Shown piece after piece: positions 13,149 through 29,251 of a stretch of 64,000 nucleotides of DNA. The position numbers and the translations under genes are program-made. Each line of letters starts with the position of its first letter. Within the stretch, counting starts at the first letter, position 1. Origin of the DNA: an uncultured virus (IMG/VR IMGVR_UViG_3300020165_000001) (taxonomy: Duplodnaviria; Heunggongvirae; Uroviricota; Caudoviricetes); IMG/VR virus record IMGVR_UViG_3300020165_000001. One strand, given 5' to 3'. The notes beneath the pieces were generated by a model. That model was not told the DNA's origin, made no database searches, and worked only from the letters and a program-made list of their open reading frames with translations.

Positions 13149-13159
13149 TTTATATTTGT

Positions 13160-14551: not shown

Positions 14552-14558
14552 GTGATGG

Positions 14559-14566: not shown

Positions 14567-14571
14567 AGTAT

Positions 14572-14733
14572 TTAATCTTTATCTCCAAACAATTGAACAG
14601 CTAAATACATTGGAAGTACAATAATACCTGCTACAATCAATGAAAATAATACGGGGCCAACAACAAAAACTGCTGCCGCAATAAGCGTTACAGCTATCAT
14701 TGGGTATTTACCTATAAGGCTATATTTTTTCAT
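14572..14733 (-). CDS. Small membrane protein (53 aa, not in track)
   Basis: MKKYSLIGKYPMIAVTLIAAAVFVVGPVLFSLIVAGIIVLPMYLAVQLFGDKD. Confidence 0.55.
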   Translation of the reverse strand: MKKYSLIGKYPMIAVTLIAAAVFVVGPVLFSLIVAGIIVLPMYLAVQLFGDKD

Positions 14734-16009
14734 AATCTGTAAATTTAGTTATTTCACTTTTAAAAGTTAGAGTCACCTCCCCGACACCTATATTCCTACC
14801 TTTAGCAAATATAATATTGGCGGTTCCCTGACTATTTTCTCCATTATCATTAAACTCTATTCCATAATACTCAGGACGATATATAAGCATTACTACATCA
14901 GCAGCTTGCTCTATCTCGCCTGATTCTCTAAGATCAGATAATGTTGGTTTGCTATTGTTACGATTACCAACACCTCTATTTAATTGACTTAGTGCTATTA
15001 CAGTGATATTTAACTCTTTAGCTAGATTTTTAAGAGTTCTAGCTACTTGACTTACTTCTTGTTCTCTAGTTCCAGACTTACTTTTACAACTAATTAACTG
15101 TAAGTAGTCTATCATAACAAGCTTAACATTTTTATTTTTTACATATTCTTTAATCCTATGCACTAAATAATTTAATGATGTTATATTACCTTCGTCTATA
15201 TGTAATGGAGTTTCTTGTATAGCATAAATTGACTCATGTATTTTCTTAAGCTCATCATCGTTTAAAGTTCCATTAGTAATATACCTGTTGCTAATACCAG
15301 AATCCATAGAAGCAAGCCTTCTAAGCAATTGTAACGCACTCATTTCGTAAGAAAACACAACAGTAGGTGTATTGGTGTATAAAGCAGCGTTATAAGCTAA
15401 GGCAAGCGCAAAACTAGTCTTACCCATTGATGATGCTCCTCCTACAATAATTAAATCTGTTTCTTGCCAGCCACCAGTAAACCTATCTATAGCTTGAAAT
15501 CCTGAAGCAATTCCTAGTAAGCCATCACTATTCATTCTTATTTCTATATCATCTAAGAAATCTTTAATCTGAGAATTTATATCTCCTAAAATTTCTGGCT
15601 TACCTATTTGTAGCTTTGACATTTCTGTAGTTAAATTACCAACTATAAGCTCTAATTCATCTCTGTTGCTTAGTTGATTATGTACATCATGTACTATACC
15701 AGTAAGTGTGCGTTTTTGAAACTCTTCTGTTAGCACGCCTACACATGTTATTACTTCCATAAAATCAAAGGCTCTATCAGTCATCTGTGATAATCCTAGT
15801 ACAACCTTATCTCCTTTAATTAGTTTAGATACTGTTAGTATATCTATAGTTTTACTTTTGCTGTGCAGTTCTATGATAGCGTGGTATGTAGATTTATTAA
15901 AATCATACTCAAACAAATCTTCGTGCAATAGCATACTGTATTTATCTATTAATTCTGGCTTTACTATAAGCTTGCCCAGTAATGTTTCTTCTATTTCATT
16001 GTTATCCAT
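14720..16009 (-). CDS. dnaB: Replicative DNA helicase
   Basis: GGASSMGKT (Walker A), MIDYLQL (Walker B), LSQLNR, LSDLRESGEIEQAAD, AKGRN. Confidence 0.95.
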   Translation of the reverse strand: MDNNEIEETLLGKLIVKPELIDKYSMLLHEDLFEYDFNKSTYHAIIELHSKSKTIDILTVSKLIKGDKVVLGLSQMTDRAFDFMEVITCVGVLTEEFQKRTLTGIVHDVHNQLSNRDELELIVGNLTTEMSKLQIGKPEILGDINSQIKDFLDDIEIRMNSDGLLGIASGFQAIDRFTGGWQETDLIIVGGASSMGKTSFALALAYNAALYTNTPTVVFSYEMSALQLLRRLASMDSGISNRYITNGTLNDDELKKIHESIYAIQETPLHIDEGNITSLNYLVHRIKEYVKNKNVKLVMIDYLQLISCKSKSGTREQEVSQVARTLKNLAKELNITVIALSQLNRGVGNRNNSKPTLSDLRESGEIEQAADVVMLIYRPEYYGIEFNDNGENSQGTANIIFAKGRNIGVGEVTLTFKSEITKFTDYEKI

Positions 16010-16028
16010 AATTTTAAATTTTAGCTAA

Positions 16029-16036
16029 CAAATATA
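16029..16036 (-). promoter_or_regulatory. Bacteroidota-type -7 promoter element
   Basis: TATATTTG, intergenic, upstream of dnaB. Confidence 0.55.
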
Positions 16037-16039
16037 TCA

Positions 16040-16294
16040 TTATTCGCCATACTTACGCTTAGCATCAGCTTTTTCTTCAAGATAATTTTCTTCCATTCTT
16101 GCATCGTATTCATATTTTTCTTCTAGATCTTCAGTCCAATTTCCACATTCATTACATATATATCCTGTTGTATCTGTATGCTCCTTACAGGATGGGCATA
16201 TATCTGAATCAGAATACATTTCTACACTACAACAGTCTGATATCCAACTATCTTCAAAGCTGCTTCCACAGCAGGTAGTAACTTCATTACTCAT
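16040..16294 (-). CDS. Cys-rich zinc-ribbon protein
   Basis: CC, CC, CPSC and CNEC motifs; likely start MSNEV. Confidence 0.6.
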   Translation of the reverse strand: MSNEVTTCCGSSFEDSWISDCCSVEMYSDSDICPSCKEHTDTTGYICNECGNWTEDLEEKYEYDARMEENYLEEKADAKRKYGE

Positions 16295-16577
16295 AATTAT
16301 TATCTTTTTTAAATTCTTGAATAGCAATTTCTTTAGACGCACATATAGAATCCATTAAAGCATCGTATATATTTTCAATAGTTTCATCATTTGATTCATG
16401 CATAGAGTTGTCTATTTCTTTTTCATAAAGTTTTGCAACTTTAAGTAATTTATTAAATTTTTGCTTAACCTGATGAGAATGAGACCACTGCATAGTATGC
16501 AGCTGCTCACTCAAACATTTCACCAAGGCTAATGTAAAATTAATATCTAGATTGATTTTTGCATCTTCTAGTTTCAT
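16287..16577 (-). CDS. Hypothetical protein
   Basis: Likely start MKLEDAK overlapping the upstream stop. Confidence 0.5.
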   Translation of the reverse strand: MKLEDAKINLDINFTLALVKCLSEQLHTMQWSHSHQVKQKFNKLLKVAKLYEKEIDNSMHESNDETIENIYDALMDSICASKEIAIQEFKKDNNYE

Positions 16578-16771
16578 GATGGATTCTTGCTTAACCATCC
16601 TAAAGCGTGCTCAACAGCCTTATCTTTCTCTCTAGTAGGTGCTTTATCTACTATAACATTCATTAAATCTAAGATAACTCTTTTAGCATCTCTTGTTATA
16701 CTATTGTTAATGCATTTCATTTGAGAATTGTATAATTCTTCAAAGTATTGATTGTGTAGTTCGTCTATCAT
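16574..16771 (-). CDS. Hypothetical protein
   Basis: 65-aa coupled ORF. Confidence 0.5.
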   Translation of the reverse strand: MIDELHNQYFEELYNSQMKCINNSITRDAKRVILDLMNVIVDKAPTREKDKAVEHALGWLSKNPS

Positions 16772-17028
16772 TATATTACTGGTATTGTTCCTAATTTTTC
16801 AAATGTAGTGGATATAGCTCCACCATCATTACCTTCATCATCCATCATTGGTACTAACCAATATTTATTATCTAACTGAATAGCTATTGGGCGCTTATAC
16901 CACATATTATCTTCCATTTCATGTCTAGTCATATATTCTACTTTTGTTATTTTCTTGCCAACTAAATGTTTAGCAATTTTTTCTGTCCAGTATTGTTCTA
17001 CTGGTTTTCCTTCAATTTTGCACTCCAT
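16771..17028 (-). CDS. Phage hypothetical protein (DDEGNDGG motif)
   Basis: LVGKKITKVEYM...MDDEGNDGGA. Confidence 0.6.
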   Translation of the reverse strand: MECKIEGKPVEQYWTEKIAKHLVGKKITKVEYMTRHEMEDNMWYKRPIAIQLDNKYWLVPMMDDEGNDGGAISTTFEKLGTIPVI

Positions 17029-17177
17029 AATTCATTTATTTTATTAAATTCTTCTATTAATATATTTTCTTCATTATCTGATAATTTTAAAAATCCTTGT
17101 ATGTATAAATTAAATAATTCAAAAATACTTGGATTGTAACCAAACTTTTCTTTATAATTTTTTATTATTGTTTCCAT
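16998..17177 (-). CDS. Hypothetical protein (59 aa, not in track)
   Basis: METIIKNYKEKFGYNPSIFELFNLY..., ATG17177 to TAG16998. Confidence 0.45.
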   Translation of the reverse strand: METIIKNYKEKFGYNPSIFELFNLYIQGFLKLSDNEENILIEEFNKINELWSAKLKENQ

Positions 17178-17190
17178 AATTTATTTATTT

Positions 17191-17535
17191 TTATTGTGCT
17201 GCCCATCCAATAAAGTAAAAAGCTTTGATACCTTTCTTGCCTTTATAACCTCTACTTTCTTTCATTTTTTTTAAGACTGCTCCTGTTATTTCTATACATA
17301 TACAGCTTCCCCATTTTTCTGCAAATTCTAGCATACTATCTTCCCACTTCCAAAACGCTTTAGTTGCATATCTTGGATTGTCATCACGCATTTTAAAGCC
17401 TGATGTTGTTGATATTGTACCATTGTAACTATCATGACCATAATCATGTAATGCATCCTCTACTAAGCTGTTATAAGCTTCTGAGGCGTTTTTGTATCTA
17501 CCGACTGCCAAATTTCCAAAATTTGTTGCTCCCAT
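17191..17535 (-). CDS. Phage early hypothetical protein
   Basis: MGATNF...YGHDSYNGTIST...KWG...FIGWA. Confidence 0.6.
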   Translation of the reverse strand: MGATNFGNLAVGRYKNASEAYNSLVEDALHDYGHDSYNGTISTTSGFKMRDDNPRYATKAFWKWEDSMLEFAEKWGSCICIEITGAVLKKMKESRGYKGKKGIKAFYFIGWAAQ

Positions 17536-17559
17536 AATTTTATTATTTTAATTAATTAA

Positions 17560-17586
17560 TAATAGTAAAAGGGGGCGTTAGCCCCC
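17560..17586 (-). promoter_or_regulatory. TAAC-loop hairpin plus TTTACTATTA cassette
   Basis: Minus strand GGGGGC-TAAC-GCCCCC-TTTTACTATTA. Confidence 0.7.
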
Positions 17587-17597
17587 TCTCATGTTGT

Positions 17598-18467
17598 TTA
17601 ATAATTTAACAAAAACTTATATGCGTTTTCGTTCATTTTACCAGCAGATCCAGTAATAATACTTTCTTGCTTACCATTTTTCCTTAATGGTGCTGACTTA
17701 TGATGTGTTGTATATTTAGTTATACCATTAAATACACCCCATTTAGTATGTGATATTCTAGACATTTCACTATCTATACAATGTGCTATATCATATATCA
17801 TATTTTGTTTTCTAGAAGACATATCTTTTTCTGTAGCCATTCTATCTGTATTTGTTAAATAATCTATTAAATCATTTACCAAAGTAGGTGTAGCAGACTG
17901 ATCGCTAAATCTTTGCAAGTTAGCAATCTTTTCTTCTTGTGATGTAAAGTTAATTATAGCAGGCAATTCTTTTACTTTATCCTGTATAGACTGTGTATGT
18001 CTATAACCTGATATTGCATTAGAATTTAACCAGCCAAATTGATTTTGACAGAATATTACTTTATTCATAAATCCAAACTTAAGGCTACTAGATCCATCAT
18101 GACTGTTAATAGCATATATGTATTGTTCAGTGTCCTGCCCACCTATAACTACATGGTTATTAGGGCGTTTCATCTGTACCATTACTTTTCTACCTTCGTT
18201 AAAAGGCATTGCTTTTACTATTTCTAAATCATTCTGACCAGCAATTTCTTGCATAGTTTCTATAATAGTATGATTTTGTGTAGGAGTGTACGCTTCTTTT
18301 ACTGTAGCAAATACTTCTCCAGTATCTTCTCTTACTATACCATAGTAGTCTGTAGAGTGTAATCCATTGTTAGCATCTGTTGTGCATTCTCCTGCATAAA
18401 GCAGTGGTTTCTTAACTACATTCCAGTTAAGTCCATTTTGTTCTAAAATTTCTTCTGTATTAAGCAT
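17598..18467 (-). CDS. DUF932/DUF945-family protein
   Basis: GLNWNV...YTPTQN...NSHDGSSS...CQNQ...RHT...TKWGVFNGIT. Confidence 0.85.
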   Translation of the reverse strand: MLNTEEILEQNGLNWNVVKKPLLYAGECTTDANNGLHSTDYYGIVREDTGEVFATVKEAYTPTQNHTIIETMQEIAGQNDLEIVKAMPFNEGRKVMVQMKRPNNHVVIGGQDTEQYIYAINSHDGSSSLKFGFMNKVIFCQNQFGWLNSNAISGYRHTQSIQDKVKELPAIINFTSQEEKIANLQRFSDQSATPTLVNDLIDYLTNTDRMATEKDMSSRKQNMIYDIAHCIDSEMSRISHTKWGVFNGITKYTTHHKSAPLRKNGKQESIITGSAGKMNENAYKFLLNY

Positions 18468-18927
18468 AATCTAATTCTAATTTAGTTAATAATTCTTCTG
18501 GTGTTCCATGAAATATCTCTGTAGCTTCGCTTCTACTATCTATTTCATACACTGTTAGGTGTATTTGTTTATCTTCTTCTGATATTTCATATAGATATTC
18601 TTCCCAGCATTCTGAAGCGTCAGGATGCATACAGTATATACCTCCTACATTAGATGTTGGTGTTCCATCATCTTTGCATCCGCTTGATTTAAAATGTACA
18701 AACATTTGTGCTGCTAGACAGTCCATACCATTAAACATAGGCTCAGACTTATCTAAAGGTATACCATTTACAACTGTATATCCAGATAACCATTCTGCTA
18801 ATTCAGCACCATGACCACTCATGTAGCCGTCATATTGACGGTACATACATGTAAGTGGTTGTCTGTGTTTTTTACCTGTTGTATCTTCCCAGGTTCTTAT
18901 TACTTTAGTTAATGATCTAGTTCCCAA
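18460..18927 (-). CDS. Phage early hypothetical protein
   Basis: MGTRS...MYRQYDGY...NGMDCLAAQ...EYLYEI; TTG start. Confidence 0.65.
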   Translation of the reverse strand: MGTRSLTKVIRTWEDTTGKKHRQPLTCMYRQYDGYMSGHGAELAEWLSGYTVVNGIPLDKSEPMFNGMDCLAAQMFVHFKSSGCKDDGTPTSNVGGIYCMHPDASECWEEYLYEISEEDKQIHLTVYEIDSRSEATEIFHGTPEELLTKLELDYA

Positions 18928-18928
18928 A

Positions 18929-19105
18929 TTATTTTGTTTTATTTGTTAATGACTCTGATATTGTTTCTGTTATCAATGACAACACTTTTGCATACGCTTC
19001 ATTTGATCCTAAGCGATATTCTTCAGATCTATTATCTGTATTTTCTCTGCTTATTGCAAGCTCCAGCTCTACAAGAGTTGCTATTTTACCTATTAGTATT
19101 TCCAT
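18929..19105 (-). CDS. Hypothetical protein (58 aa, not in track)
   Basis: MEILIGKIATLVELEL...; fills the gap exactly. The listed + ORF 18934-19119 is its shadow. Confidence 0.55.
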   Translation of the reverse strand: MEILIGKIATLVELELAISRENTDNRSEEYRLGSNEAYAKVLSLITETISESLTNKTK

Positions 19106-19107
19106 AT

Positions 19108-19317
19108 CTATTGTTTTAGTTCTTTAATTTCCCAATTTTCATGAGCTATATCCATTTGCTCAAGTTCTTTTTCAGCTATTAGCGCCCATAAACCCTCATC
19201 ACCAGATAAGACTTTATCGTTAATAGTTGTTTTATGATCTCTTCCATCATCAGGAAATTTTAAAAACACACTTGTAGTATATTCTCTAGTTACTCTAAGT
19301 TCATATTCTTTATGCAT
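19108..19317 (-). CDS. Hypothetical protein
   Basis: 69-aa ORF in the operon. Confidence 0.5.
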   Translation of the reverse strand: MHKEYELRVTREYTTSVFLKFPDDGRDHKTTINDKVLSGDEGLWALIAEKELEQMDIAHENWEIKELKQ

Positions 19318-19414
19318 TGTCTTTTATTAATTTAGTCATTAATTTTACTAGCTTTTCCATAGCTTCAGCTAGTCTCTTGATGTCATTAGCTAGTTCTTGA
19401 TCTAATCTAGTCAT
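19310..19414 (-). CDS. Small coiled-coil peptide (34 aa, not in track)
   Basis: MTRLDQELANDIKRLAEAMEKLVKLMTKLIKDNA; overlaps both neighbours. Confidence 0.5.
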   Translation of the reverse strand: MTRLDQELANDIKRLAEAMEKLVKLMTKLIKDNA

Positions 19415-19655
19415 GGTAATAGCTTGTAATTCTTTCTATAATTCCTCTACCGTTAGCTGTATGAAACCCATAGCTATGTGTATGAAGCTCAGGTATTGGT
19501 TTGTTTTCTAATAACAAATATAGTAAGTCCCATTCGTTGTCATAATCCATATCTTCACGAGTTTGGTTTACAGCTTGTGCTAGTGCATAGACATCATGCC
19601 TTGGCTCACAATTAAGCGTGTTTATTATATATGATTCTACCTCTTGTCCACTCAT
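19407..19655 (-). CDS. Hypothetical protein
   Basis: 82-aa ORF. Confidence 0.5.
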   Translation of the reverse strand: MSGQEVESYIINTLNCEPRHDVYALAQAVNQTREDMDYDNEWDLLYLLLENKPIPELHTHSYGFHTANGRGIIERITSYYHD

Positions 19656-19659
19656 AATA

Positions 19660-19947
19660 TTAATGTTCTTGTTGGTCTTTAAAACTTGTAAAGCTCTTTG
19701 CTTTAACTACATTAGTTTTTTTATTTCTGTCAATATATTGAACGGCTTTTAATCCCTCCCATATTTCAGTTTCTCTTTTTACTACTTTGTAGCATTCTTC
19801 AATTAACATTTCTCTCTGTATTTCTACAGGTTTAGTTGGATTAACTGTGATGCTTTGCCCATAGTTAATCTTTACTGCTTCAAAGTTGCCTATATTTATA
19901 GACTTACTTACATTGAATGATATTGATGTTGTTTCTATTTTACTCAT
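19660..19947 (-). CDS. Hypothetical protein
   Basis: SINIGNFEAVKI motif; 95 aa. Confidence 0.55.
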   Translation of the reverse strand: MSKIETTSISFNVSKSINIGNFEAVKINYGQSITVNPTKPVEIQREMLIEECYKVVKRETEIWEGLKAVQYIDRNKKTNVVKAKSFTSFKDQQEH

Positions 19948-20216
19948 CTTTTAAATTGTTTTAAGTTTAAAAATCTTAACATATCTTTTTTAAGATCTGT
20001 TGTTTTATTTCTTAGCTTTTCCATTTCAAAGTATAAACCTCTTTCACCAAGATATGTATTGCTAATGCTTTCCAGTCTGTCTTTTAAATTATTAACAGAA
20101 GGTATTAGTTTGTTTTTAATAATAGTAAGTTCTTTCTGTCTCTCTATGTATGCTCTCCATGCATCGTAAGACTCATAAACTCTTTCTCCTATTTTTCTAA
20201 TTCTCATTGGTTCCAT
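19944..20216 (-). CDS. Hypothetical protein
   Basis: 90-aa ORF. Confidence 0.5.
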   Translation of the reverse strand: MEPMRIRKIGERVYESYDAWRAYIERQKELTIIKNKLIPSVNNLKDRLESISNTYLGERGLYFEMEKLRNKTTDLKKDMLRFLNLKQFKR

Positions 20217-20748
20217 TTACTTTAATTTTAGCAGGCTTAATATCAGCCACGTTAATACTTATTGTTTCTGTTTCTTCTCCACATGAAAGACATTTAGCTT
20301 CATATTCATCATCAAATAATACTTCTGCTTCACAGCATTCTGAAGCTGCGTCTAAGTCCCATGTAAAATCATCCCATATTACTTCATACTGTGCTGATAG
20401 TCTACCACCAAAGCACATGCCTGGCTCTTCGTATTCTAACGTAAAACATAAGTCGGGAAAATCTTGCATAATATTGTCTACCCATTGTATAGGAGGGCCC
20501 CAAGCTGATTCAAAGTTTACAGAAAAGTAATCTTTATCATCATGGTTTATATGTGGTTCGCAAGCATCCCATTTAGTTCCCCAATTAGCTATACTCCATT
20601 CATACCAATCTTTACGATCACCACGAGGAAGCGTTCCTTCAAATGAAAACTCTGTTTCTTTATGAGCATTCATAGATTTTTCTACAAATTCATGTAGTTG
20701 TTTTTCGTCACCTGATACTTCTAGGTGATTCCAGCACCAATTTGGCAT
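20197..20748 (-). CDS. DUF1281/YubB ferredoxin-like-domain protein
   Basis: MPNWCWN...WYEWSIANWGTKWD...FESAWGPP...YEEPG. Confidence 0.8.
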   Translation of the reverse strand: MPNWCWNHLEVSGDEKQLHEFVEKSMNAHKETEFSFEGTLPRGDRKDWYEWSIANWGTKWDACEPHINHDDKDYFSVNFESAWGPPIQWVDNIMQDFPDLCFTLEYEEPGMCFGGRLSAQYEVIWDDFTWDLDAASECCEAEVLFDDEYEAKCLSCGEETETISINVADIKPAKIKVNGTNEN

Positions 20749-20769
20749 AATTATTTGTTTTTAGTTAAT

Positions 20770-21227
20770 AAAAAAGGAAGAGAGTAGTAGGATAACAGCA
20801 AACGTTAGTTATCATTCCGTGGCCACACGCTACCACTACTCTCAACCTATTAATACACAACCCTTGAGTGACTGAAACTACTCTTCACCAGTGTTGTAGA
20901 TATGTAAAAAAGAACAGGCTATAGTACAGCTCGCGAGATGTCTATGACACAGACTATATTCGTGCTTGGTACAGTAAGAGAGCTACTCTTACTAAGTAAA
21001 TACGTATATAGTATTTACAGCCTTATTTTATACCTGTTCTTATAACAAAAAGAGGTAGGTTGAATCAGACCGATAGCGAGGAAAACCCTCTTTAGCATGC
21101 TATCTATATGTAACAACCCTTGGCATAGGATTTAGCTACTGTGTACCTACCTCTCTTATAACAAGAAAGAGGTTAGTGATGCATGCTTTTAAGCTGCCTG
21201 CAGGGCTTCTGCGCACGTCTCTTTCTT
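20770..21227 (-). ncRNA. Tandem array of candidate structured RNAs
   Basis: ORF-free region of about 460 nt with four consecutive multibranch elements closed by 8-10 bp perfect stems. Confidence 0.55.
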
Positions 21228-21619
21228 TATATTTGTGATGCTAATGCTTTAATCTGTTCGGGACTAATGCGACTAGCAATTGTTTTATATTTAGTTTTAA
21301 ATCTAGCTCTATGCTTAGTAAAAGCATTTACTATCTTATAGTATCTAGATATGTGTTTTCTTCTTAATGACTTATATTCTTCATTAGCCATATTTACTCT
21401 TTTTATAAATTCATTATATTTAGAGAATTTTCTTACAGCACCGCTAAGGTATTGTATTTCAAGTGTTTTAGCATTCTTGTAGTGTATAATACTGTCTGCA
21501 TATTTCTTTCTAAATGATGCATGTGCGATATCATATTTACTGATGTCAGGTGATTTTGCATCAATTAGTTTTTTTAAATCTTTCAGATAAGCTGAAGTAA
21601 TTTCATAAGGTTCTTTCAT
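21227..21619 (-). CDS. Basic hypothetical protein
   Basis: 130-aa ORF preceded by the early motif. Confidence 0.55.
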   Translation of the reverse strand: MKEPYEITSAYLKDLKKLIDAKSPDISKYDIAHASFRKKYADSIIHYKNAKTLEIQYLSGAVRKFSKYNEFIKRVNMANEEYKSLRRKHISRYYKIVNAFTKHRARFKTKYKTIASRISPEQIKALASQI

Positions 21620-21648
21620 GGTAAAAAGTTTTAGTTAGTATTATAGAG

Positions 21649-21682
21649 AATAGTAAAAAAGGAAGGAGCGTTAGCTCCGACC
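21649..21682 (-). promoter_or_regulatory. TAAC-loop hairpin plus TTTACTATT cassette
   Basis: Minus strand GGAGC-TAAC-GCTCC-TTCCTTTTTTACTATT. Confidence 0.7.
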
Positions 21683-21685
21683 TGT

Positions 21686-21937
21686 TTATTTGTAGTTGTT
21701 TAATTCTTCTTCTGTCAACGGTTTAGGTGTTAATGCTGTGAATATAGAGAATAATACTCCTGCAATAACAGCTGTAGCTAAGCCACTGAATGTACCTATA
21801 AATAACATAGGTAGTAATACGGTAAACAGTATGTCCCAGAATGTCTGAGTCTTTACTAGTCTACGCCTGCCTAAGGCTTTATATACTATGATATAATAAC
21901 CTATGGCAGCGAAGAATGCAGTTCCAATGATACTCAT
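21686..21937 (-). CDS. Small multi-pass membrane protein
   Basis: About three hydrophobic segments; LFIGTFSG...AGVLFS. Confidence 0.6.
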   Translation of the reverse strand: MSIIGTAFFAAIGYYIIVYKALGRRRLVKTQTFWDILFTVLLPMLFIGTFSGLATAVIAGVLFSIFTALTPKPLTEEELNNYK

Positions 21938-22245
21938 TAGAATGGCAGATTTTCTACAGTTTCTGTTAATTCTGCTTTAGCAGCAGCTTGAGGATTGTAG
22001 TCATTATGACTCATACTGTGAGTGAATTTACTACCCTCTTTGTTACTCCATACATCTGTTTGAACATAACCATTTGCATTTACATTCTCTTTCATCCAGT
22101 TGCAGAACTTTCTTGCATCAAAGTTTATCTTCATTAAAGTGTTACCATTATCAAATGTTATTTCTTTAATAAATACTCCTGATGCGAAATTAGTTTCTTT
22201 CTTTGCTACTGATTTCTTTGTTGCTTTTTTTGCTTTTGTTGCCAT
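21937..22245 (-). CDS. Small possible ssDNA-binding protein
   Basis: FASGVFIK...NANGYV, basic N-terminus, C-terminal ENLPF. Confidence 0.45.
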   Translation of the reverse strand: MATKAKKATKKSVAKKETNFASGVFIKEITFDNGNTLMKINFDARKFCNWMKENVNANGYVQTDVWSNKEGSKFTHSMSHNDYNPQAAAKAELTETVENLPF

Positions 22246-22308
22246 TTTTAGTTTAGTGGTTAAGCCACAAGCTATTAATTAATAATTAGTTTATTGTAAA
22301 TAGTAAAA

Positions 22309-22373
22309 ATAATCCCCTACGACTTGCACGCCAAGGTCCACTTTGCCACAAGGGCAGATTAGACAGGGATTAT
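22309..22373 (-). ncRNA. Candidate small structured RNA with its own upstream motif
   Basis: ATAATCCC/GGGATTAT closing stem, two inner hairpins, U-tract; TTTACTATTA at 22387-22396 just upstream. Confidence 0.5.
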
Positions 22374-22463
22374 ATATTGTTATAGTTAATAGTAAATAAC
22401 TAGAAGTTATAGAAGTATAGTTTATTAACTAAGTCTATATCCTTAAGATAGATGTTTAATATG

Positions 22464-23117
22464 TTATACACTTTCAATAAGTTTATTCATGTTTTTAGAA
22501 TCATCCATAAAATCGTTTTTACGCATAGCTCTAAATCCATCTTCTTGAGCATATTCTACCCATCCTCTTACAGATGATTGAATAATAAATTTATTGCATA
22601 TTAAATCAGCAATTTCATTAGGTTGTCCTGGTTCCGTTGGCCAACCATCAAATAACATAGTTAGTATATCTCCACGATTATCTTTATACCATCTTCCACT
22701 TACTAATATAGTTGTACCTTTCTTTGCTTCAGATATGAAATAGTCCATTGTTTCTTTAAATGAAATTCTTTCAGTTTCCGAATCACTAAAGTATATATCT
22801 ATTGTAAAGGGTAATAGCTCTTTTTGTTCAATATCTAGATAGTCACCTGTTTCTAAGAACCATTTATAAGCTTCTGCTCCTGTTTTATTTATTCCATGAT
22901 AATAATGGTGATAAACAAAATGTGGAGAGTTGTTAGTAGGTGCTATTGTATTTTGTATATTTATTAATAGATCAGTTAAAGTTTTGTGATTACGAGTGTA
23001 CTCGCCTGTTTCTATTAAATGTTCAATCCATCCTTTACATTTTTTTAGTATTTCTGATGAGCGTTCATTAGCATCATCCCATCCTCTTTCATATTCTGTG
23101 TCAATTAAATTTTCCAT
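22464..23117 (-). CDS. Hypothetical protein
   Basis: 217-aa ORF. Confidence 0.55.
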   Translation of the reverse strand: MENLIDTEYERGWDDANERSSEILKKCKGWIEHLIETGEYTRNHKTLTDLLINIQNTIAPTNNSPHFVYHHYYHGINKTGAEAYKWFLETGDYLDIEQKELLPFTIDIYFSDSETERISFKETMDYFISEAKKGTTILVSGRWYKDNRGDILTMLFDGWPTEPGQPNEIADLICNKFIIQSSVRGWVEYAQEDGFRAMRKNDFMDDSKNMNKLIESV

Positions 23118-23152
23118 AGTTTTATATTTGTTTAGTTAATGTTTAGGTTAAA

Positions 23153-23274
23153 AAGAGTAAGCCTCTTGAGTGTGATGGTACCCCCATCTGCTCTTTTATA
23201 GCGTAGTGATACTTCAATATATCACTATGTACTATAGTTATTAATGAGCTCTCACGCAAGTTAAGACTTACTCT
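23153..23274 (-). ncRNA. Candidate multibranch structured RNA
   Basis: AGAGTAAG/CTTACTCT closing stem; inner GATGG/CCATC and TAGTGATA/TATCACTA stems; U-tract on the minus strand. Confidence 0.5.
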
Positions 23275-23290
23275 CTTATGTAAAGAGCGA

Positions 23291-23584
23291 CTAATCCACT
23301 CTTATGTTTACGTCTCTTATAGAATAACAGTAATCTTGTACCATATCCTCAAAGCAAGTAGACCAATCTATGAATGGCATATTTACTAATTGCATATCTA
23401 TTACTGCTTTATCTTTAGCACGCTGTTCCATTATATCGTGTAAAGGTTCTACTTTGTATGTATGGAATACTGGTGTATCCATATGAATTGTTGTTGAGCA
23501 AGATGTACACTCAACTAAGTTGTGTGAATGCTCAAATGCTGTTGTGCTGTTGCAGTTATTGCAACTAATGTCTGTAAGTTTCAT
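23291..23584 (-). CDS. Zinc-ribbon protein
   Basis: CNNC...CTSC. Confidence 0.55.
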   Translation of the reverse strand: MKLTDISCNNCNSTTAFEHSHNLVECTSCSTTIHMDTPVFHTYKVEPLHDIMEQRAKDKAVIDMQLVNMPFIDWSTCFEDMVQDYCYSIRDVNIRVD

Positions 23585-23624
23585 ATAATAATATGTATTA
23601 GTAAGTAATTAGTTTATCTATTAT

Positions 23625-23654
23625 TAATAGTAAAAAAGGGAGCCGTTAGGCTCC
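23625..23654 (-). promoter_or_regulatory. TAAC-loop hairpin plus TTTACTATTA cassette
   Basis: Minus strand GGAGCC-TAAC-GGCTCC-CTTTTTTACTATTA. Confidence 0.75.
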
Positions 23655-23659
23655 GATTA

Positions 23660-23881
23660 TTAGAATGGTAAGTCATCATCATTTCCTTTTGATACTTGAT
23701 TGATTTCGCAATGCAACCAATTTTCATATGATAATGGGTTATCATTGCAATTATTGCAATAAGTTTTGTAATCAGACTGAAGTTGTTCTTGGATACGTTG
23801 ATGTTCTTCGGGTGTTGTGTCTCGCATTGTAGGTACTCCGTCTTTGTCATCAAATACTACGTTTTTAGATTTGTCAAGCAT
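23660..23881 (-). CDS. Small early protein with SSB-like C-terminal tail
   Basis: Likely start MLDKSK (ATG23881); ends GNDDDLPF. Confidence 0.55.
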   Translation of the reverse strand: MLDKSKNVVFDDKDGVPTMRDTTPEEHQRIQEQLQSDYKTYCNNCNDNPLSYENWLHCEINQVSKGNDDDLPF

Positions 23882-23954
23882 TTTATTATATGTATTGATT
23901 AATGTTATTATTAATAGTAAATATATGCGGAGCAATTAGAGTGATATATTATTA

Positions 23955-24020
23955 GTGAGTGAAACGAACACAGTAATGATGAGAGATAAGCGAGCAGTTC
24001 GTAGAACATATTTGCGAGCA
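23955..24020 (+). other. Strand-specific ssDNA-type hairpins (GNA triloops, tandem G.A pairs)
   Basis: GTGAGT-GAA-ACGAAC and GCGAGC-A-GTTC-GTA-GAAC-ATATTT-GCGAGC. Confidence 0.55.
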
Positions 24021-24030
24021 GTGTAAAAGA

Positions 24031-24046
24031 GGAGCCGTTAGGCTCC
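24031..24046 (-). terminator. Conserved TAAC-loop hairpin
   Basis: GGAGCC-TAAC-GGCTCC-TCTTTTAC, identical stem to 23639 and 24318. Confidence 0.7.
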
Positions 24047-24066
24047 GTCTATTGGAATGGTTAGTT

Positions 24067-24273
24067 TTACCACCACCAATCATCACTCCTACTCTCATCA
24101 TAAGCTTTCTCTGCTTTATTTGCTTTATCTATATCAGCTTTTTTATGCTTATAGATATATTTATTGTGCTTTACACTCAATCTATAAAATAGATGGTATT
24201 GTGATATAGTCAAATTCACTCCTCTGTCTCTACAGAATGCATTTAATAATATTGCTTGTCCTACTGTCATCAT
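24067..24273 (-). CDS. Hypothetical early protein
   Basis: 68 aa, ends DDWWW; preceded by the early motif. Confidence 0.5.
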   Translation of the reverse strand: MMTVGQAILLNAFCRDRGVNLTISQYHLFYRLSVKHNKYIYKHKKADIDKANKAEKAYDESRSDDWWW

Positions 24274-24304
24274 ATCTTTATATGTTTTAGTTAATACTTA
24301 TTAA

Positions 24305-24333
24305 TAATAGTAAAAAAGGAGCCGTTAGGCTCC
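24305..24333 (-). promoter_or_regulatory. TAAC-loop hairpin plus TTTACTATTA cassette
   Basis: Minus strand GGAGCC-TAAC-GGCTCC-TTTTTTACTATTA. Confidence 0.75.
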
Positions 24334-24339
24334 ATAGTT

Positions 24340-24522
24340 TTAAATAGATAGTTCATAATAATCTATCATTGATAATGGTTTTGTATTGATTGTTTCTAAA
24401 AAGTCACAATAAATAAACCATTCTAATTTTAATGTTTTAAATTCTTTTAGTGATTGAATTTTATCAGCCACTAAGTTGTTGAAGATATTTAATTCTTCTT
24501 GTGTTGTGATTATCTCACTCAT
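24340..24522 (-). CDS. Hypothetical early protein
   Basis: 60 aa; motif at 24554-24563 upstream. Confidence 0.5.
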   Translation of the reverse strand: MSEIITTQEELNIFNNLVADKIQSLKEFKTLKLEWFIYCDFLETINTKPLSMIDYYELSI

Positions 24523-24567
24523 AATGTATATATATTAATTAATAACTTATTATTAATAGTAAATATT

Positions 24568-24710
24568 TAATCAGCTAAATATATTAAGGAATATAGTTTG
24601 TTGTAAAAAATAGCTAGAACGCTTGACAATGTCATTTAAAATGTATAACTTCGCAAACTCAATAGTTAGTTATTATACTAATCAGCTAAATATATTAGAA
24701 CATATAGTTT
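24568..24710. repeat. 19-bp exact (about 32-bp imperfect) direct repeat in AT-rich non-coding DNA
   Basis: TAATCAGCTAAATATATTA at 24568-24586 and 24679-24697, each followed 4 nt later by ATATAGTTT. Confidence 0.8.
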
Positions 24711-24887
24711 ATACTTATTATAATCATTACTAATGTATTAATTGATTGATTATCAATGTTTTAACTTAATACTTATAGTGTTTATAGGTATTATAGTATA
24801 GTTATTAAGGGTGTTAGACTGTATCACACTCACACTTATATCCGCAATATTTATAGTATTTTCACAGATAATGTTAAAAAAAGAGAA

Positions 24888-25025
24888 CTAATTGTTCTCT
24901 CTTATTTCTTTTTTAGCTTCTTTGATACCTTGTTTAACGCCTTCTGATATACCAACGTATATTCCGACCATTGTACCTACTGTCTTACCAGTTAAAACTG
25001 CTGCTTTGTTTACTAAATCTTTCAT
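24888..25025 (-). CDS. First gene of the minus block (45 aa, not in track)
   Basis: MKDLVNKAAVLTGKTVGTMVGIYVGISEGVKQGIKEAKKEIRENN; TTTACTATT motif 32 nt upstream; AGAGAAC/GTTCTCT hairpin with T-tract at the stop. Confidence 0.55.
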   Translation of the reverse strand: MKDLVNKAAVLTGKTVGTMVGIYVGISEGVKQGIKEAKKEIRENN

Positions 25026-25160
25026 GATATTTTTAGTTTAATTAATACTTATTTAAAATAGTAAAAAGAAAGATAGGGTGGGGTATCCAAAGATTTGAAA
25101 ACCAAGGGGGGTTTTAGGCATATAGTATCCCTCCCTCACAAAAAAAATAAAAATTTTTTA

Positions 25161-25168
25161 TATCTTTG
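25161..25168 (+). promoter_or_regulatory. Bacteroidota-type -7 promoter for the late block
   Basis: TATCTTTG, 21 nt upstream of ATG25190. Confidence 0.65.
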
Positions 25169-25189
25169 TAAAAACTTAAACCTTACGCT

Positions 25190-25735
25190 ATGACACAAGA
25201 AGATCAAAATCTACAAAGCTTATTCGCTAATTTAAATCAAGTATCCCGAAATTCTATGATAAGAGAGAAGGTTGGAGGAGGTACAGGTGGTGGTTCTAAT
25301 ATAGCAGAAGGGACTATGGATCCAAATACATTAATGACAGGTAATCCATATATTGCTAAGAATGTTGTTGAGTTTAATCAAGGAGGAATGGTAGGAGCAT
25401 CAGGTGCGCCAACAATGAATAATCCTTATATTGAAAAGATGAATCAATTAGTAGGCTTACAGCAAATGGTGAATGTAGGAAAAGGTTTAGCAAATAACGT
25501 CTTACAACAAGAAGCTATGATGTCTGCTCCTCAAGCAAACTACGGGATGAAAAGAAAGTATCAAGAAGGAGGAAACTTTCCACACAACATGTATCATCCA
25601 AAAACTGGATACAAAATAGTAGCAGAAGATAATGACGCACATACTAAATTAGCTAAGGCTGGATTTGGTCATACGCCTAAAGCTGCTTATGGTATGAAAA
25701 TGAAAAAAAGATACACTAACGGGGGTAGATTCTAA
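25190..25735 (+). CDS. Hypothetical protein with repeated (F/Y)xxGG and AxYGMK motifs, probably virion-internal
   Basis: FNQGG, ANYGMK, YQEGG, AAYGMK, YTNGG. Confidence 0.55.
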   Translation: MTQEDQNLQSLFANLNQVSRNSMIREKVGGGTGGGSNIAEGTMDPNTLMTGNPYIAKNVVEFNQGGMVGASGAPTMNNPYIEKMNQLVGLQQMVNVGKGLANNVLQQEAMMSAPQANYGMKRKYQEGGNFPHNMYHPKTGYKIVAEDNDAHTKLAKAGFGHTPKAAYGMKMKKRYTNGGRF

Positions 25736-26418: not shown

Positions 26419-26687
26419 GAGAAATAAACAGAGAAGATGGTAAGGTGTATACAATAGATGATTTCTATTTTTTGGAAAAGAATTATATAGATTTAGGTAA
26501 ATTAATAGAAGATGAAAAGTGGATTGTTAGTAGGTCTAAAAAAAATGGGTTTAGAGTTGTAAAATCTAACTGGTATATGCAAGATAATCCAGACTTTACA
26601 ATTGAGAGCGTTATCTATGGCACAACTCCTAAGCATACTAGTCCTATACGATATATGTTTAAATTACAATTAGAATATACTAAATAA
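26415..26687 (+). CDS. Hypothetical protein
   Basis: 90-aa coupled ORF. Confidence 0.5.
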   Translation: MREINREDGKVYTIDDFYFLEKNYIDLGKLIEDEKWIVSRSKKNGFRVVKSNWYMQDNPDFTIESVIYGTTPKHTSPIRYMFKLQLEYTK

Positions 26688-27217
26688 TGTACTTATTAAA
26701 GCTAAACAGGAAGGGCGATATTTATAAGGATGATGACGGATGTACTGGCGTACCAGAATTTCTTACACTCATTAAGAAAGAAAAATTCGGGCCTACGGCC
26801 CTCAAGTGGGTTGCCCTAGTCTGCGACTATGAAAGCCCATATAGGCACTACAGTGAAAATGAGAGAGTTAAGGCTGTTTCTAAAGACTTATATGATACTT
26901 ATACTTGGAAAGGAGCTAAAGACGCGTCTATAAAAGCAGCTTGTAAGAAATATACAGAACTACAATTTGATCCTTTAGATGAACAGCTTATAGCATTTAA
27001 CAATAAAATTAATCAGTTTACAGCTCTTATTGACGGAATGCATTTAGATGAAGAGAATGCTGAGTTATTACAAAAGCTAATGATAGGGGTTGAAAAGATA
27101 CTTAAGACTAGACAGTCTTTATTAGATGCTATAGACAGAAGAGGGGAAAGACAAAAGATAGCTGGAGATAAAGGATTGTCATTTTTAGAAAGAAGAAAAG
27201 AAATAAAAGAACTGTAA
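26687..27217 (+). CDS. Helical protein, candidate terminase small subunit
   Basis: DYESPY motif, C-terminal coiled coil, two genes upstream of TerL; the call is positional inference. Confidence 0.4.
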   Translation: MYLLKLNRKGDIYKDDDGCTGVPEFLTLIKKEKFGPTALKWVALVCDYESPYRHYSENERVKAVSKDLYDTYTWKGAKDASIKAACKKYTELQFDPLDEQLIAFNNKINQFTALIDGMHLDEENAELLQKLMIGVEKILKTRQSLLDAIDRRGERQKIAGDKGLSFLERRKEIKEL

Positions 27218-27444
27218 TGGCTAGAAGCAAAAAAGAAACAAAACATGATGTCAAATATCTTTACGCAAGATATATTAAGTTTTATAATAAAGCAGATATG
27301 GATAAGGCTGCTGAGTATCACGACTTAGCTATGAAGCTACATGGTGTGGATTTAGCACAAAGATATCACATGAAGATAGAAAAGAGGGAGCAGTCTAAAG
27401 GAACTTTTGGATTAGGTAAGACTAAACGATTAAGATATGGGTAA
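27217..27444 (+). CDS. Hypothetical protein
   Basis: 75-aa coupled ORF. Confidence 0.5.
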   Translation: MARSKKETKHDVKYLYARYIKFYNKADMDKAAEYHDLAMKLHGVDLAQRYHMKIEKREQSKGTFGLGKTKRLRYG

Positions 27445-29251
27445 GATAAAGTTTGATCCACAAAGATATCGCCCTATACCAAATAGTGGTCATCCTGATT
27501 TAAATCCTGACTCAGTGGCATATCAAGAGTATTGGGCTCAAGAAACTGATAGATGTTTACATGGGTATAAACCTAAAGGCATGAAAGCAATATCTGGCAA
27601 GTACTATTTCTATCTAAATTACTATATGATATTAGGTAATGACGGAACATCAGGTAATCGTAAGAATTTAATACATCCTTGGTACAGAACTATGGATCAT
27701 GAGTATTTTGATACAATAGAGCTGTGTAAAGAAGAAGGTAAGGGGATGATTGTTATTAAAGCCAGAGATAAGGGGTTTTCTTATATGAACTCAGGCGCTG
27801 TTGCTCATGAATATACATTCTATCCTTTTAATGATGTAGGTGTAGCTGCTGGACTGCAAGTTACAGCTGACGCATTCTTTGATAAAACTAGAAAAGGTCT
27901 TAATGGTATACACCCTAACTTTAAACACTCTGTACTTAAAGACACTGATGGTATAATGAGATCTGGATACAAACAAAAGAATAAAGACGGTAAGTGGGAG
28001 ATAGGTGGCTATCAATCTAACATTATATGTAGAACAATGGATAATCCTGAAGTATTCAAAGGAGAAAGGGTTTCTTTAATGATATTTGAAGAAGCAGGAG
28101 AATTTAAAAAACTTAAGAACGCTTACATGTCATCTAAAGCATGTTTTATGGATGGAGATATTCAGTTTGGAGTACCTATTGTCGGTGGAACTGGAGGGGA
28201 TATATCTAAAGCGTCTAAAGATTTTATGGATATGTATTATAGTCATGATGCTTATAATCTAATTCCTATGTTTATTCCAGCATCAAAAGCATACTATGGT
28301 TTCTTTGATATAGATACAGGTGTAGAAGACGAAAAGGGTGCAAGAGAAAAACTTATAGCAGATAGAGAGGATATACAGAAATCTGGAGATAATGAGGCAT
28401 ATAACTTACATATACAGAATTACCCTTTAACTGTAGAGGAGGCATTTTTAAATACTCACTCTTCAAGGTTTGATATTGCATTACTTAACGCACAAAGATC
28501 TAGAATATTATCAAGTAAAGACAATAGAAGTCAAATACAACAAGGCTTTTTAGATTGGCAATTAGGAGAGGGTGAACCTAAAGTAACTTGGAGGCCACAC
28601 CCTACTGGTCCATACAAAATATTAGCACATCCAGAGAAAGAATATAAGAATTTAGACATAGGTGGTATTGATAGTTATGATCAAGATCAAGCTGGAGCAT
28701 CAGATTCCTTGGGTAGTGCAATAATTTATCGTAGATTTGCAAATACAGAAATGCCGAGCGATTACGTGGTTGCAGAATATACAGATAGACCCCCTAAGAA
28801 GGAAGATTTTTGGGATGGTTGTTTAAAGCTCGCTGTGTATTATAACTCTAAAATGCTGGTAGAGTATACAAAGATAGGTATATTAGATTACTTTAAACGT
28901 ATGAATGCGCTAAAGTATTTAAAAGAAAAGCCAGAGTCTGCACATAACCCTGGTACAAAAACTAGAAACAGGTATGGTGTGCATATGAATAAGCAGGTTA
29001 AAGCTCTTATGGAAGATTTGATAGATGATTATTTAAGAGAGAGTGCTCAAGACATATGGTTTATTGACTTGATAGATGAGCTTGCTAATTATGGATTGCA
29101 AAATACGGATAGGGCTATGGCTTTTGGTTTGTGTTTAATTCATAATATAGATAATTATAGAATGAAGGCGTCTATACAAGAAAAGGTGAAGGATATAGGA
29201 TTTAAATATTATAAAATGGGATATAATGGAATCCCTACAGAAATAAAATAA
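27437..29251 (+). CDS. terL: Terminase large subunit (crAss-like)
   Basis: KARDKGFS (Walker A), LMIFEEAGE (Walker B), GGTGG, nuclease GGIDSYD and DRAMA motifs. Confidence 0.95.
   Translation: MGKIKFDPQRYRPIPNSGHPDLNPDSVAYQEYWAQETDRCLHGYKPKGMKAISGKYYFYLNYYMILGNDGTSGNRKNLIHPWYRTMDHEYFDTIELCKEEGKGMIVIKARDKGFSYMNSGAVAHEYTFYPFNDVGVAAGLQVTADAFFDKTRKGLNGIHPNFKHSVLKDTDGIMRSGYKQKNKDGKWEIGGYQSNIICRTMDNPEVFKGERVSLMIFEEAGEFKKLKNAYMSSKACFMDGDIQFGVPIVGGTGGDISKASKDFMDMYYSHDAYNLIPMFIPASKAYYGFFDIDTGVEDEKGAREKLIADREDIQKSGDNEAYNLHIQNYPLTVEEAFLNTHSSRFDIALLNAQRSRILSSKDNRSQIQQGFLDWQLGEGEPKVTWRPHPTGPYKILAHPEKEYKNLDIGGIDSYDQDQAGASDSLGSAIIYRRFANTEMPSDYVVAEYTDRPPKKEDFWDGCLKLAVYYNSKMLVEYTKIGILDYFKRMNALKYLKEKPESAHNPGTKTRNRYGVHMNKQVKALMEDLIDDYLRESAQDIWFIDLIDELANYGLQNTDRAMAFGLCLIHNIDNYRMKASIQEKVKDIGFKYYKMGYNGIPTEIK

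Follow-up and report, generated by a model that had tools for sequence, protein, structure and literature searches.

A selected, strand-specific hairpin cluster between a terminator and a promoter-like motif of a crAss-like marine phage, and its possible role in starting RNA synthesis

We analyzed a window of 64,000 nucleotides (nt) from an uncultured marine phage with crAss-like kin (IMG/VR record IMGVR_UViG_3300020165_000001; AT-rich, about 32% G+C), and focused on a cluster of small hairpins, hereafter the element, that lies in a 184-nt spacer between two leftward genes of 68 amino acids (aa; 24273-24067) and 73 aa (23882-23660). Read on the minus strand, the spacer runs from the terminator of the upstream gene (24046-24025) through ~100 nt that contain the hairpins to the promoter-like motif TTTACTATTA (23921-23912) and then to the ATG of the downstream gene (Table 1). 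The hairpins fold on the + strand, and this strand serves the local leftward genes as template. A first-pass annotation, made by a model from the letters alone, had pointed to two of them and to the features on either side, and all of these sequences were found as described: GTGAGT-GAA-ACGAAC at 23955-23969 (H1), the two GCGAGC copies at 23990-23995 and 24014-24019 (outer stem) enclosing GTTC-GTA-GAAC at 23997-24007 (H2), the GGAGCC-GTTA-GGCTCC hairpin at 24031-24046, and TTTACTATTA on the minus strand. To these we add a third mini-hairpin, HP0 (TGC-GGA-GCA, 23926-23934).

Table 1. Features of the hairpin element, its flanks, and the second hairpin family (window positions unless a locus is given)
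Feature	Position	Strand	Remarks
Downstream 73-aa gene (MLDKSKNV...)	23660..23882	-	Other gene at the same place in relatives; no Pfam match
TTTACTATTA promoter-like motif	23912..23921	-	40 nt from motif start to downstream-gene ATG
Whole hairpin element (family 1)	23922..24023	+	Unit conserved in 13 variants; matched by covariance model R1
HP0 mini-hairpin, TGC-GGA-GCA (GCGGAGC at 23927-23933)	23926..23934	+	Three pairs invariant in 13/13
Unpaired block GAGCAATTAGAGTGATAT between HP0 and H1	23930..23947	+	Retrieval anchor
H1, GT-GA-GT/GAA/AC-GA-AC	23955..23969	+	Four Watson-Crick pairs, tandem G.A/A.G step, GNA triloop
Outer stem, 5' arm (GCGAGC plus A)	23990..23996	+	Pairs with 24013-24019
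H2, GTTC-GTA-GAAC, C-GNA-G triloop hairpin	23997..24007	+	Enclosed by outer stem
Outer stem, 3' arm (T plus GCGAGC)	24013..24019	+	Pairs with 23990-23996
Intrinsic terminator of 68-aa gene, GGAGCC-TAAC-GGCTCC then TCTTTT	24025..24046	-	Hairpin arms 24046-24031
Upstream 68-aa gene	24067..24273	-	Its own terminator borders the element
Family 2 loci, AGGARC-GNA-GYGACT	L125:688, L144:4654, L146:848, L147:4914 and 5454, L222-L229		

Since megablast and blastn searches of the region against GenBank phages (INPHARED) returned no match, we gathered relatives in three ways, using the terminator sequence, the terminase gene TerL, and an 18-base pattern from the unpaired flank of the element. The TerL route yielded 80 loci with 79-100% identity, while the 18-base pattern, a query of which the hairpins are not part, fetched 48 metagenome loci, 18 of them true homologues. 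An exact 20-mer scan of viral contigs gave matches limited to two contigs already found, and the public runs containing the stretch are mostly marine metagenomes. The resulting comparison set comprises 13 distinct variants of 102-141 nt, all retrieved by way of flanking sequence, which were aligned with MAFFT and in which five helices were counted.

This comparison uncovered standard pairs in 286 of 287 cells (99.7%), the sole unpaired cell being an A.G in H2 of one variant (L203). Both sides have changed in 8 of the 26 pairs (21 cells), and the covariation score of 0.175, compared with 0.067 in shuffles, was reached by none of 500 shuffled alignments. As a control, partners were slid by 1-3 columns, and pairing then amounted to only 17-46%; RNAalifold recovered the same helices de novo. 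The closing pair of H1 changes from T-A to C-G in 2 of the 13 variants (L131 and L217). The GCGAGC/GCGAGC arms of the outer stem appear in relatives as ACGAGC/GCGAGT, GCGAAC/GTGAGC, or GCGAGTAACC/GGTTACGAGC, with both-side changes at 4 of 7 pairs, and the GTTC/GAAC stem of H2 is replaced by GTGC/GCAC, CAGATC/GATCTG, or CTGATC/GATCAG, with three compensatory pairs. Longer variants hold one or two extra hairpins within the outer stem, ATATGC-GAA-GCATAT and CTATGAT-TT-ATCATAG, so that a variant carries 3-5 hairpins in all, and GCGAAGC is part of H1 in L131 and, in 7 of the 9 long variants, of H3. HP0 and H3 are invariant and are therefore uninformative on pairing either way; HP0, which displays no covariation, is the weakest helix. 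Collectively, the comparative evidence (near-complete pairing, eight compensatory pairs, and no shuffle of equal score) confirms the hairpin cluster as a real, selected structure. The unpaired block GAGCAATTAGAGTGATAT is the best-conserved stretch among homologues found by BLAST (among the anchor-fetched loci its conservation is by construction) and is a possible initiation region. A longer helix flanking H1 (columns 27-33 with 52-59) was considered and dropped, as it is AT-rich and its register varies between variants.

Watson-Crick covariation is strand-neutral, and four other features were used to tell the strands apart. The tandem G.A/A.G steps of H1 and the outer stem are invariant in 13/13 variants, standing unchanged beside Watson-Crick pairs of which 5 of 8 vary (H1 plus the core outer stem), and on the opposite strand they become tandem pyrimidine mismatches. 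The triloops of H1 (GAA in 12 variants, GTA in 1) and H2 (GTA in 10, GAA in 2, GCA in 1) are G-N-A in 13/13 cases each and read as TNC on the opposite strand; the loop exceptions fall in the invariant helices, with AAA in 2 of 9 H3 loops and AGA in 5 of 13 HP0 loops (GGA in the other 8). On the + strand, the outer pair of the outer stem is G.T in two rows of the alignment and A.C in none. Finally, DNA nearest-neighbour parameters, which give no credit for the special stability of G.A and GNA motifs, predict that the + strand folds more stably than its complement in 13/13 variants, by a mean of 2.5 kcal/mol. All strand-specific features, namely the tandem G.A steps, the G-N-A triloops, and the G.T wobble intermediate, thus lie on the + (template) strand. 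The first-pass annotation had held that the fold belongs to this strand, a proposal that would have fallen had the GA positions drifted or had the complement equalled or exceeded the + strand in stability; both helices keep their GA positions alongside stem covariation, and the predicted stability favors the + strand in every variant.

Judged from the window alone, the hairpins do not exceed chance. The energy of the DNA fold is -6.1 kcal/mol for the + strand (z -0.50; 57 of 200 shuffles fold as well) and -3.6 for the minus strand (z +0.20), and the RNA fold of the minus strand has a z of -0.49. GNA-triloop hairpins with at least four pairs number 23 (+) and 36 (-) in the window, and C-GNA-G mini-hairpins are not enriched there (13 on the + strand and 10 on the minus strand vs 29.5 and 20.7 in shuffles). 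GCGAGC occurs seven times vs 3.6 expected, a count that 8 of 100 shuffles reach.

We also searched 954 kb, consisting of the window and the TerL loci, with a strict descriptor of H1 (two pairs, GA, two pairs, GNA, and the mirrored half). It returned 9 matches on the + strand and 0 on the minus strand (1.9 and 0.65 in shuffles, none of 100 giving more than 5), and these nine are not independent, as they represent five sequence types in two families. The descriptor revealed a second family, with AGGAGC-GAA-GCGACT in L125 and AGGAAC-GAA/GGA-GTGACT in L144, L146, and L147, which lies on the same strand as family 1 near the head of the leftward genes of these other relatives, ~45-50 nt before gene starts. 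A neighboring 19-mer fetched eight loci, seven of which have AGGAAC-GNA-GTGACT (N being A or C in three each and G in one), and the remaining one, L224, has a plain AGAACC-AAA-GGTTCT hairpin in the same position; in L147, an additional copy contains two G.A steps. Since pairing is built into the descriptor, family 2 is supporting rather than independent evidence.

The element lies behind the T-run of a terminator and ahead of a promoter-like motif, and is therefore probably in neither of the neighboring mRNAs. A scan for intrinsic terminators found nothing inside 23922-24023 and only the flanking hairpin at 24046-24031, and in no variant does a U-run or terminator follow the structure on the + strand, where the 3' flanks are A-rich or mixed. 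No conserved + strand promoter is apparent to the left, since the genes left of the element differ between variants. Searching Rfam at E values up to 1 gave no match in the element (two matches in 22000-25500 fall outside it), and a tRNA/tmRNA scan found nothing in it. The terminators of the same phages carry RNA-type tetraloops (UAAC and UUCG) on the sense strand, whereas the element carries GNA triloops on the other strand. In the available text of one source, GCGNAGC mini-hairpins with a sheared G-A pair are documented as extraordinarily stable in DNA (PMC13037366). Given this position, the missing U-run and promoter on the + strand, the Rfam result, the loop contrast, and the GCGNAGC precedent, we consider it probable that the element is a DNA-level signal. 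The first-pass annotation had proposed a functional single-stranded DNA signal; of this, a selected and strand-specific structure is supported, as is, probably, action at the DNA level, and loading of a virion RNA polymerase (vRNAP), a single-strand origin, and priming are candidate roles.

Further analysis of the surroundings revealed how the element is embedded. The terminator hairpin is present in three identical copies in the window (23654-23639, 24046-24031, and 24333-24318) vs 0 expected, and TTTACTATTA has nine exact copies, of which 7 are minus-strand copies spread over 10237 to 24563 and 2 are plus-strand copies. Seven TTTACTATTA sites (six exact, one carrying a single mismatch) have an ATG 40-50 nt downstream, and at 2 of the 3 terminator-hairpin copies the motif comes directly after the T-run. 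On the strength of the repeated hairpins, the repeated motif, and the ATG spacing, we read the region as a chain of "promoter, small gene, terminator" cassettes, in which the element is an extra module between the terminator and the promoter of one cassette. Close relatives differ by the loss or replacement of whole cassettes: in L070, exactly one cassette is missing from between two hairpin copies, and genes are replaced in L042 and in run X8. In one DNA run, 23874-24031 is retained with 1 differing base and the adjoining gene is replaced. A recombination module at 10998-14315 on the minus strand, encoding a PD-(D/E)XK exonuclease (DUF3799; "exonuclease VIII" in PHROGs) and a Rad52-like annealing protein, fits such heavy cassette shuffling. 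Between 21600 and 25100 on the minus strand, the TTTACTATTA-type motifs, each trailed by a second block, TATTAAYTAA, lie ~40 nt 5' of each ATG.

The element itself is conserved but accessory. In a 526-kb set that includes the window, the complete relative G002, and 50 kb of phage phi14:2, it was the only match of covariance model R1 (105.5 bits, E 5.8e-19). Across strains it precedes at least five different genes, and a downstream open reading frame (ORF) was detected in 11 variants, in 9 of which the distance from the center of HP0 to the ATG is 42-60 nt; for two variants no downstream ORF was found in the sequence covered. In L143, this distance is 177 nt, with a short terminator-ended stretch intervening: to the left of the element (~4830-5000 of that locus) come a motif, ~90 nt without an ORF, a terminator hairpin, and the next promoter, and the ~90-nt stretch either yields a very short non-coding transcript or is what a lost gene left behind. 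In L174 and L209, the element sits one or two cassettes further right, exactly between the motif and the intergenic repeat, at a place that corresponds to window position 24566. Among the 24 TerL loci with at least 4.5 kb of upstream sequence, family 1 is present in 4, family 2 in 3, and neither in 17. Family 1 was absent from 5/5 near-complete relatives (E up to 1) in a search that recovered the known copies in 3/3 control records, and the complete genome G002 (65,046 bp with a 59-bp terminal repeat) contains neither family. Given these absences, in the near-complete relatives and in 17/24 TerL loci, and the different genes that it precedes, the element is a dispensable, movable module upstream of a promoter-like motif. 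A miniature element of the IS200/IS605 type was considered for its strand-specific subterminal hairpins and rejected: the window ORFs scanned include no recognizable transposase, the element invariably ends at the promoter motif on its left side, and its mobility is explained by recombination between repeated cassettes.

Several features of the phage bear on what the element might do. TerL (27437-29251) shares ~30% identity with crAss-like TerLs of Bacteroides, Flavobacterium, and Cellulophaga phages (205 records), PHROGs labels identify a portal and a major head protein among the window ORFs, and a 2184-aa ORF matches the muzzle protein gp44 of crAss001; the latter ORF was considered as a polymerase and rejected on account of this homology. 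Scans of the window ORFs also identified a DnaB-type helicase. Genes run leftward from ~25100 to 8000 and rightward from 25190, and the cumulative GC skew reaches its lowest value near 22-24 kb. The divergent intergenic region (24566-24915) contains two 32-nt repeats (24568-24599 and 24679-24710), a sigma-70-like TTGACA...TATAAC on the + strand near 24623-24650 that is conserved in L144, and a terminator-like hairpin on the + strand at 24882-24900; it may encode a non-coding RNA of ~230 nt or be an origin region. On the far side of this region, a second pair of GNA hairpins (26786-26829, minus strand; TAGTC-GCA-GACTA and T-GA-GGGCC-GTA-GGCCC-GA-A) falls within a conserved gene of 176 aa (+ strand ORF 26687-27217), the second gene ahead of TerL and possibly the small terminase. 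The second of these hairpins has a GC-rich stem with flanking G.A steps in a genome of 32% G+C, and the stems are kept while a loop codon alters its residue (T/A/M/S); the pair might function as a pac-type site or correspond to the main element. In addition, an 8-bp palindromic hairpin, CTTTGCAA-GTA-TTGCAAAG, lies at 46297-46315 (both strands), where the 2184-aa muzzle-protein gene meets the gene that follows, and is present in G002 too.

Among the functions that could account for these observations, we rank a role in transcription first and a role in priming second. Our tentative preference, held at somewhat less than even confidence, is that the element is extruded on the template strand and serves there as an entry or start site from which RNA synthesis runs leftward into the adjacent cassette. 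In such a mechanism, the + strand would fold into a small branched cluster made of HP0, H1 with its tandem sheared G.A, and an outer stem with G.A pairs around one to three C-GNA-G triloop hairpins, and this cluster would be extruded by negative supercoiling or by local opening of the AT-rich promoter region. The complementary strand, with its pyrimidine mismatches and TNC loops, could form only weak hairpins and would stay open or coated with single-strand DNA-binding protein (SSB). The extruded template strand would then present a fixed junction between hairpin and single strand, together with the conserved unpaired block, so that an enzyme needing a single-stranded template could start RNA at the cluster and run leftward into the cassette. 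The favored enzyme would be an injected crAss-type virion RNA polymerase, a primase being less likely. The available text on the crAss-type vRNAP of phi14:2 reports that it is efficient on single-stranded or denatured DNA and poor on a double-stranded template, and that no common upstream motif was found for the early phi14:2 transcripts (10.1101/2020.03.07.982082). That a vRNAP specifically acts at the site is more doubtful than the start site itself, and slightly more doubtful again is the fuller proposal, in which the strand-specific hairpins would be a structure-dependent promoter for a crAss-type injected RNA polymerase, convergent with that of phage N4 and carried on a movable cassette.

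A candidate for this enzyme may be encoded by a giant + strand ORF at 52617-63998, which is open at the window end (>3794 aa). Its residue 2353 marks a GADLDGD sequence that resembles the metal-binding motif of two-barrel RNA polymerases, and weak protein-atlas hits (two-barrel RNA polymerase and Rpb1/Rpb2/LEF-9-type clusters, score 0.82) are treated as a lead only.

A number of observations weigh against the proposed start site. The giant ORF found no sequence match in PDB with phmmer, either as a whole or as a 1001-aa part, no tblastn match in phages, and none in Pfam or PHROGs, and its best BLASTP E value against gp66 of phi14:2 was 0.57. In the first 50 kb of phi14:2, comparable hairpins number 1 on the + strand, within a coding region, and 0 on the minus strand, and the signal therefore does not extend to the one crAss-like phage with mapped early transcripts. 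The window holds a single copy of the element, and its dispensability also counts here; from the single copy and the absence in 5/5 near-complete relatives it follows that the element is neither an essential origin nor the only early promoter of the phage group. Every cassette already has its own TTTACTATTA-type motif, so that the element is not needed to explain cassette transcription. It also lies mid-genome, the terminal repeats of the complete relative being ~33 kb from TerL, and it forms one branched cluster, whereas N4 has three single hairpins at the entering genome end. Lastly, N4 vRNAP depends on a purine in the middle of the loop, a position that here varies freely between A, T, and C in family 1 and between A, C, and G in family 2. 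A metatranscriptome run (X20) contained 9% of the sampled words, and its contigs, which give neither strand nor transcript ends, do not extend over 23670-24337, so that this run speaks neither for nor against the start site.

The second-ranked possibility, which we regard as unlikely, is that the element is the priming signal (single-strand initiation, or ssi, site) of a replication origin, where the nearby AT-rich divergent intergenic region would open first and the + strand hairpins would resist SSB and recruit primase for leftward leading-strand synthesis. The complementary-strand origins of G4/St-1/alpha3 and RSF1010 ssiA are known to take this form, with several hairpins over 100-140 nt of single strand and mini-hairpins of the GCGNAGC or CCGAAGG type (PMC13037366), and the + strand would be the leading-strand template for a leftward fork from the intergenic region, which the hairpins of L174, L209, and family 2 (L144 and L146) adjoin with its repeats. 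The DnaB-type helicase and the GC-skew minimum would suit an origin as well, but the skew switch coincides with the switch in gene direction and is therefore not independent evidence, and no primase gene was found among the window ORFs scanned, the window being part of the genome. The GNA hairpin pair at 26786-26829, on the opposite strand and the far side of the intergenic region, recalls paired ssi sites, but it lies in a coding region and its pairing is lost in L160-L162 with the peptide unchanged. Distribution also tells against priming: an essential part of an origin should be present in the near-complete relatives and G002, all of which lack it, and an origin needs no link to a promoter motif, whereas the element moves with this motif and is 42-60 nt from gene starts in 9 of 11 cases.

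Less probable still are two readings to which we give equal weight. One takes the structure to be RNA, either a small antisense RNA transcribed off the + strand or a protein-bound, read-through sense RNA. Covariation alone would allow this, tandem G.A pairs and G.U wobbles are stable in RNA too, and consensus-like sigma-70 hexamers occur on the + strand in the AT-rich left flank, e.g., at 23844-23871. An antisense RNA is opposed by the Rfam result, by the A-rich 3' flank with no U-run or terminator, and by a left flank that differs between variants beyond the 40-nt promoter region. A sense RNA would have to be read from behind a terminator and would hold pyrimidine mismatches, UNC loops, and A.C in place of G.T, and the minus-strand RNA fold is near its shuffled mean, as given above. 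The other reading makes the element a double-stranded or cruciform protein-binding module (operator, insulator, supercoil sink, or recombination hot spot) that plays no part in initiation. It would agree with the way the element travels with the promoter motif where whole cassettes swap, drop out, or are replaced, with the annealing protein and exonuclease of the phage, and with direct repeats on the minus strand such as ACTGCTCGC, which occurs twice, 24 nt apart. Such a symmetric site, however, predicts conserved half-sites and not free compensatory change of eight pairs; the invariant GA...GA steps break the duplex dyad, as sheared G.A pairs in a folded strand should but a palindromic operator should not, and the second ACTGCTCGC copy is not retained as such in the L091 and L131 types. 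That the structure arose by chance in a non-functional spacer, or is the remnant of a deleted gene, is very improbable. The window-only statistics are at chance level, and a 16-codon + strand ORF (23975-24025) might hint at an old gene, but chance does not account for covariation beside invariant non-canonical steps or for the near-identity of 23874-24031 where the neighboring gene was replaced, and we rejected the short ORF because neither its frame nor its length is conserved (insertions of 23 and 36 nt).

Collectively, the structure is confirmed as real and strand-specific, and a function as start site for leftward RNA synthesis is plausible but unproven. crAss-like phages are among the most abundant phages known, and the crAss-type injected polymerase transcribes single-stranded DNA in vitro. 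We found no description of hairpin early promoters in crAss-like phages in the open-access literature or bioRxiv, and the preprint on the P23-45 virion RNA polymerase makes no mention of a hairpin promoter. Were the proposal of a promoter for the injected polymerase correct, the element would be the missing early start signal of a polymerase that needs a single-stranded template, it would have converged with the signal of the unrelated T7-like N4 polymerase, and any small gene could be placed under immediate-early control by moving it next to such a module. Regardless of the enzyme, the element offers a concrete 100-nt substrate with natural compensatory mutants. Our data also indicate that tandem sheared G.A pairs and GNA triloops, usually seen as curiosities of DNA chemistry, are retained by selection in a phage genome, and that a signal of this kind can be an accessory module moving between gene cassettes.

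With regard to known systems, a close likeness is to the early promoters P1-P3 of coliphage N4, which are described, in the available text, as template-strand hairpins with a 3-base loop and a sheared G:A that are extruded by gyrase, the complementary hairpin being melted by SSB and that strand kept open, and whose vRNAP requires a purine at the loop center (-11), with conserved bases through +1 at a fixed distance (PMC4496689); the mini-hairpin of the N4 promoter is given as GCGGAGC (PMC13037366, available text). As in N4, small template-strand hairpins lie just upstream of the genes to be served, a three-base loop is closed by C-G with a sheared G:A inside, the complementary-strand hairpin is weaker, the same heptamer GCGGAGC is present, and a giant protein with a candidate polymerase-like motif is encoded. 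The N4-type stem of 5-7 bp with a 3-nt loop and sheared G:A is seen in H1 (6 stem positions) and H2 (4-6 bp), whereas a fixed purine at the loop center is not, and one cluster in 64 kb replaces several copies at the entering end. The N4 enzyme is a T7-like single-subunit vRNAP, and the candidate here would be a crAss-type two-barrel enzyme; no vRNAP of the N4 gp50 family was detected in this phage, whose TerL, portal, and muzzle-protein homologues are crAss-like. Tandem G.A steps within stems do not feature in the available parts of the N4 promoter descriptions (PMC4496689, PMC13037366), and the element, unlike those promoters, is dispensable in relatives.

The element also recalls the primase-dependent complementary-strand origins of phages G4, St-1, and alpha3 and the ssiA and ssiB sites of RSF1010, signals of ~100-140 nt with several hairpins and GCGNAGC-type mini-hairpins that, in the available text, bind SSB poorly (PMC13037366). 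Our variants measure 102-141 nt, with 3-5 hairpins and GCGGAGC in the window, and the folding strand is likewise the one that templates outward synthesis from a nearby AT-rich region. Those replicons are single-stranded at the relevant stage, whereas this phage packages double-stranded DNA, so that extrusion or origin opening would be needed first; the element also differs in being accessory, in being tied to a promoter motif, and in having no cognate primase among the window ORFs scanned. In the single-stranded DNA promoters of conjugative plasmids (F Frpo and ColIb-P9 ssi3), a folded single strand is the RNA start site for early genes or priming. There, a long, imperfectly paired hairpin in the transferred single strand imitates a double-stranded sigma-70 promoter, whereas the hairpins described here are tiny, of the GNA/G.A type, and have no -35/-10 mimic. 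The PeSLs of T4-type phages are not known to contain more than a terminator plus an early promoter, and the element differs from them as an extra hairpin cluster between the two that folds on the strand opposite to that of the terminator RNA. Its surroundings do resemble PeSL cassettes, in which, according to the available text, a terminator stem-loop is fused to a promoter motif and cassettes turn over (PMC2839356, PMC4122927), and here, too, a repeated hairpin and motif between small genes mark the break points of exchange. The element thus resembles both the N4 hairpin promoters and the G4/RSF1010 priming signals and belongs to neither family, and it is set apart from known signals by its tandem G.A steps, its branched cluster, and its mobility with gene cassettes.

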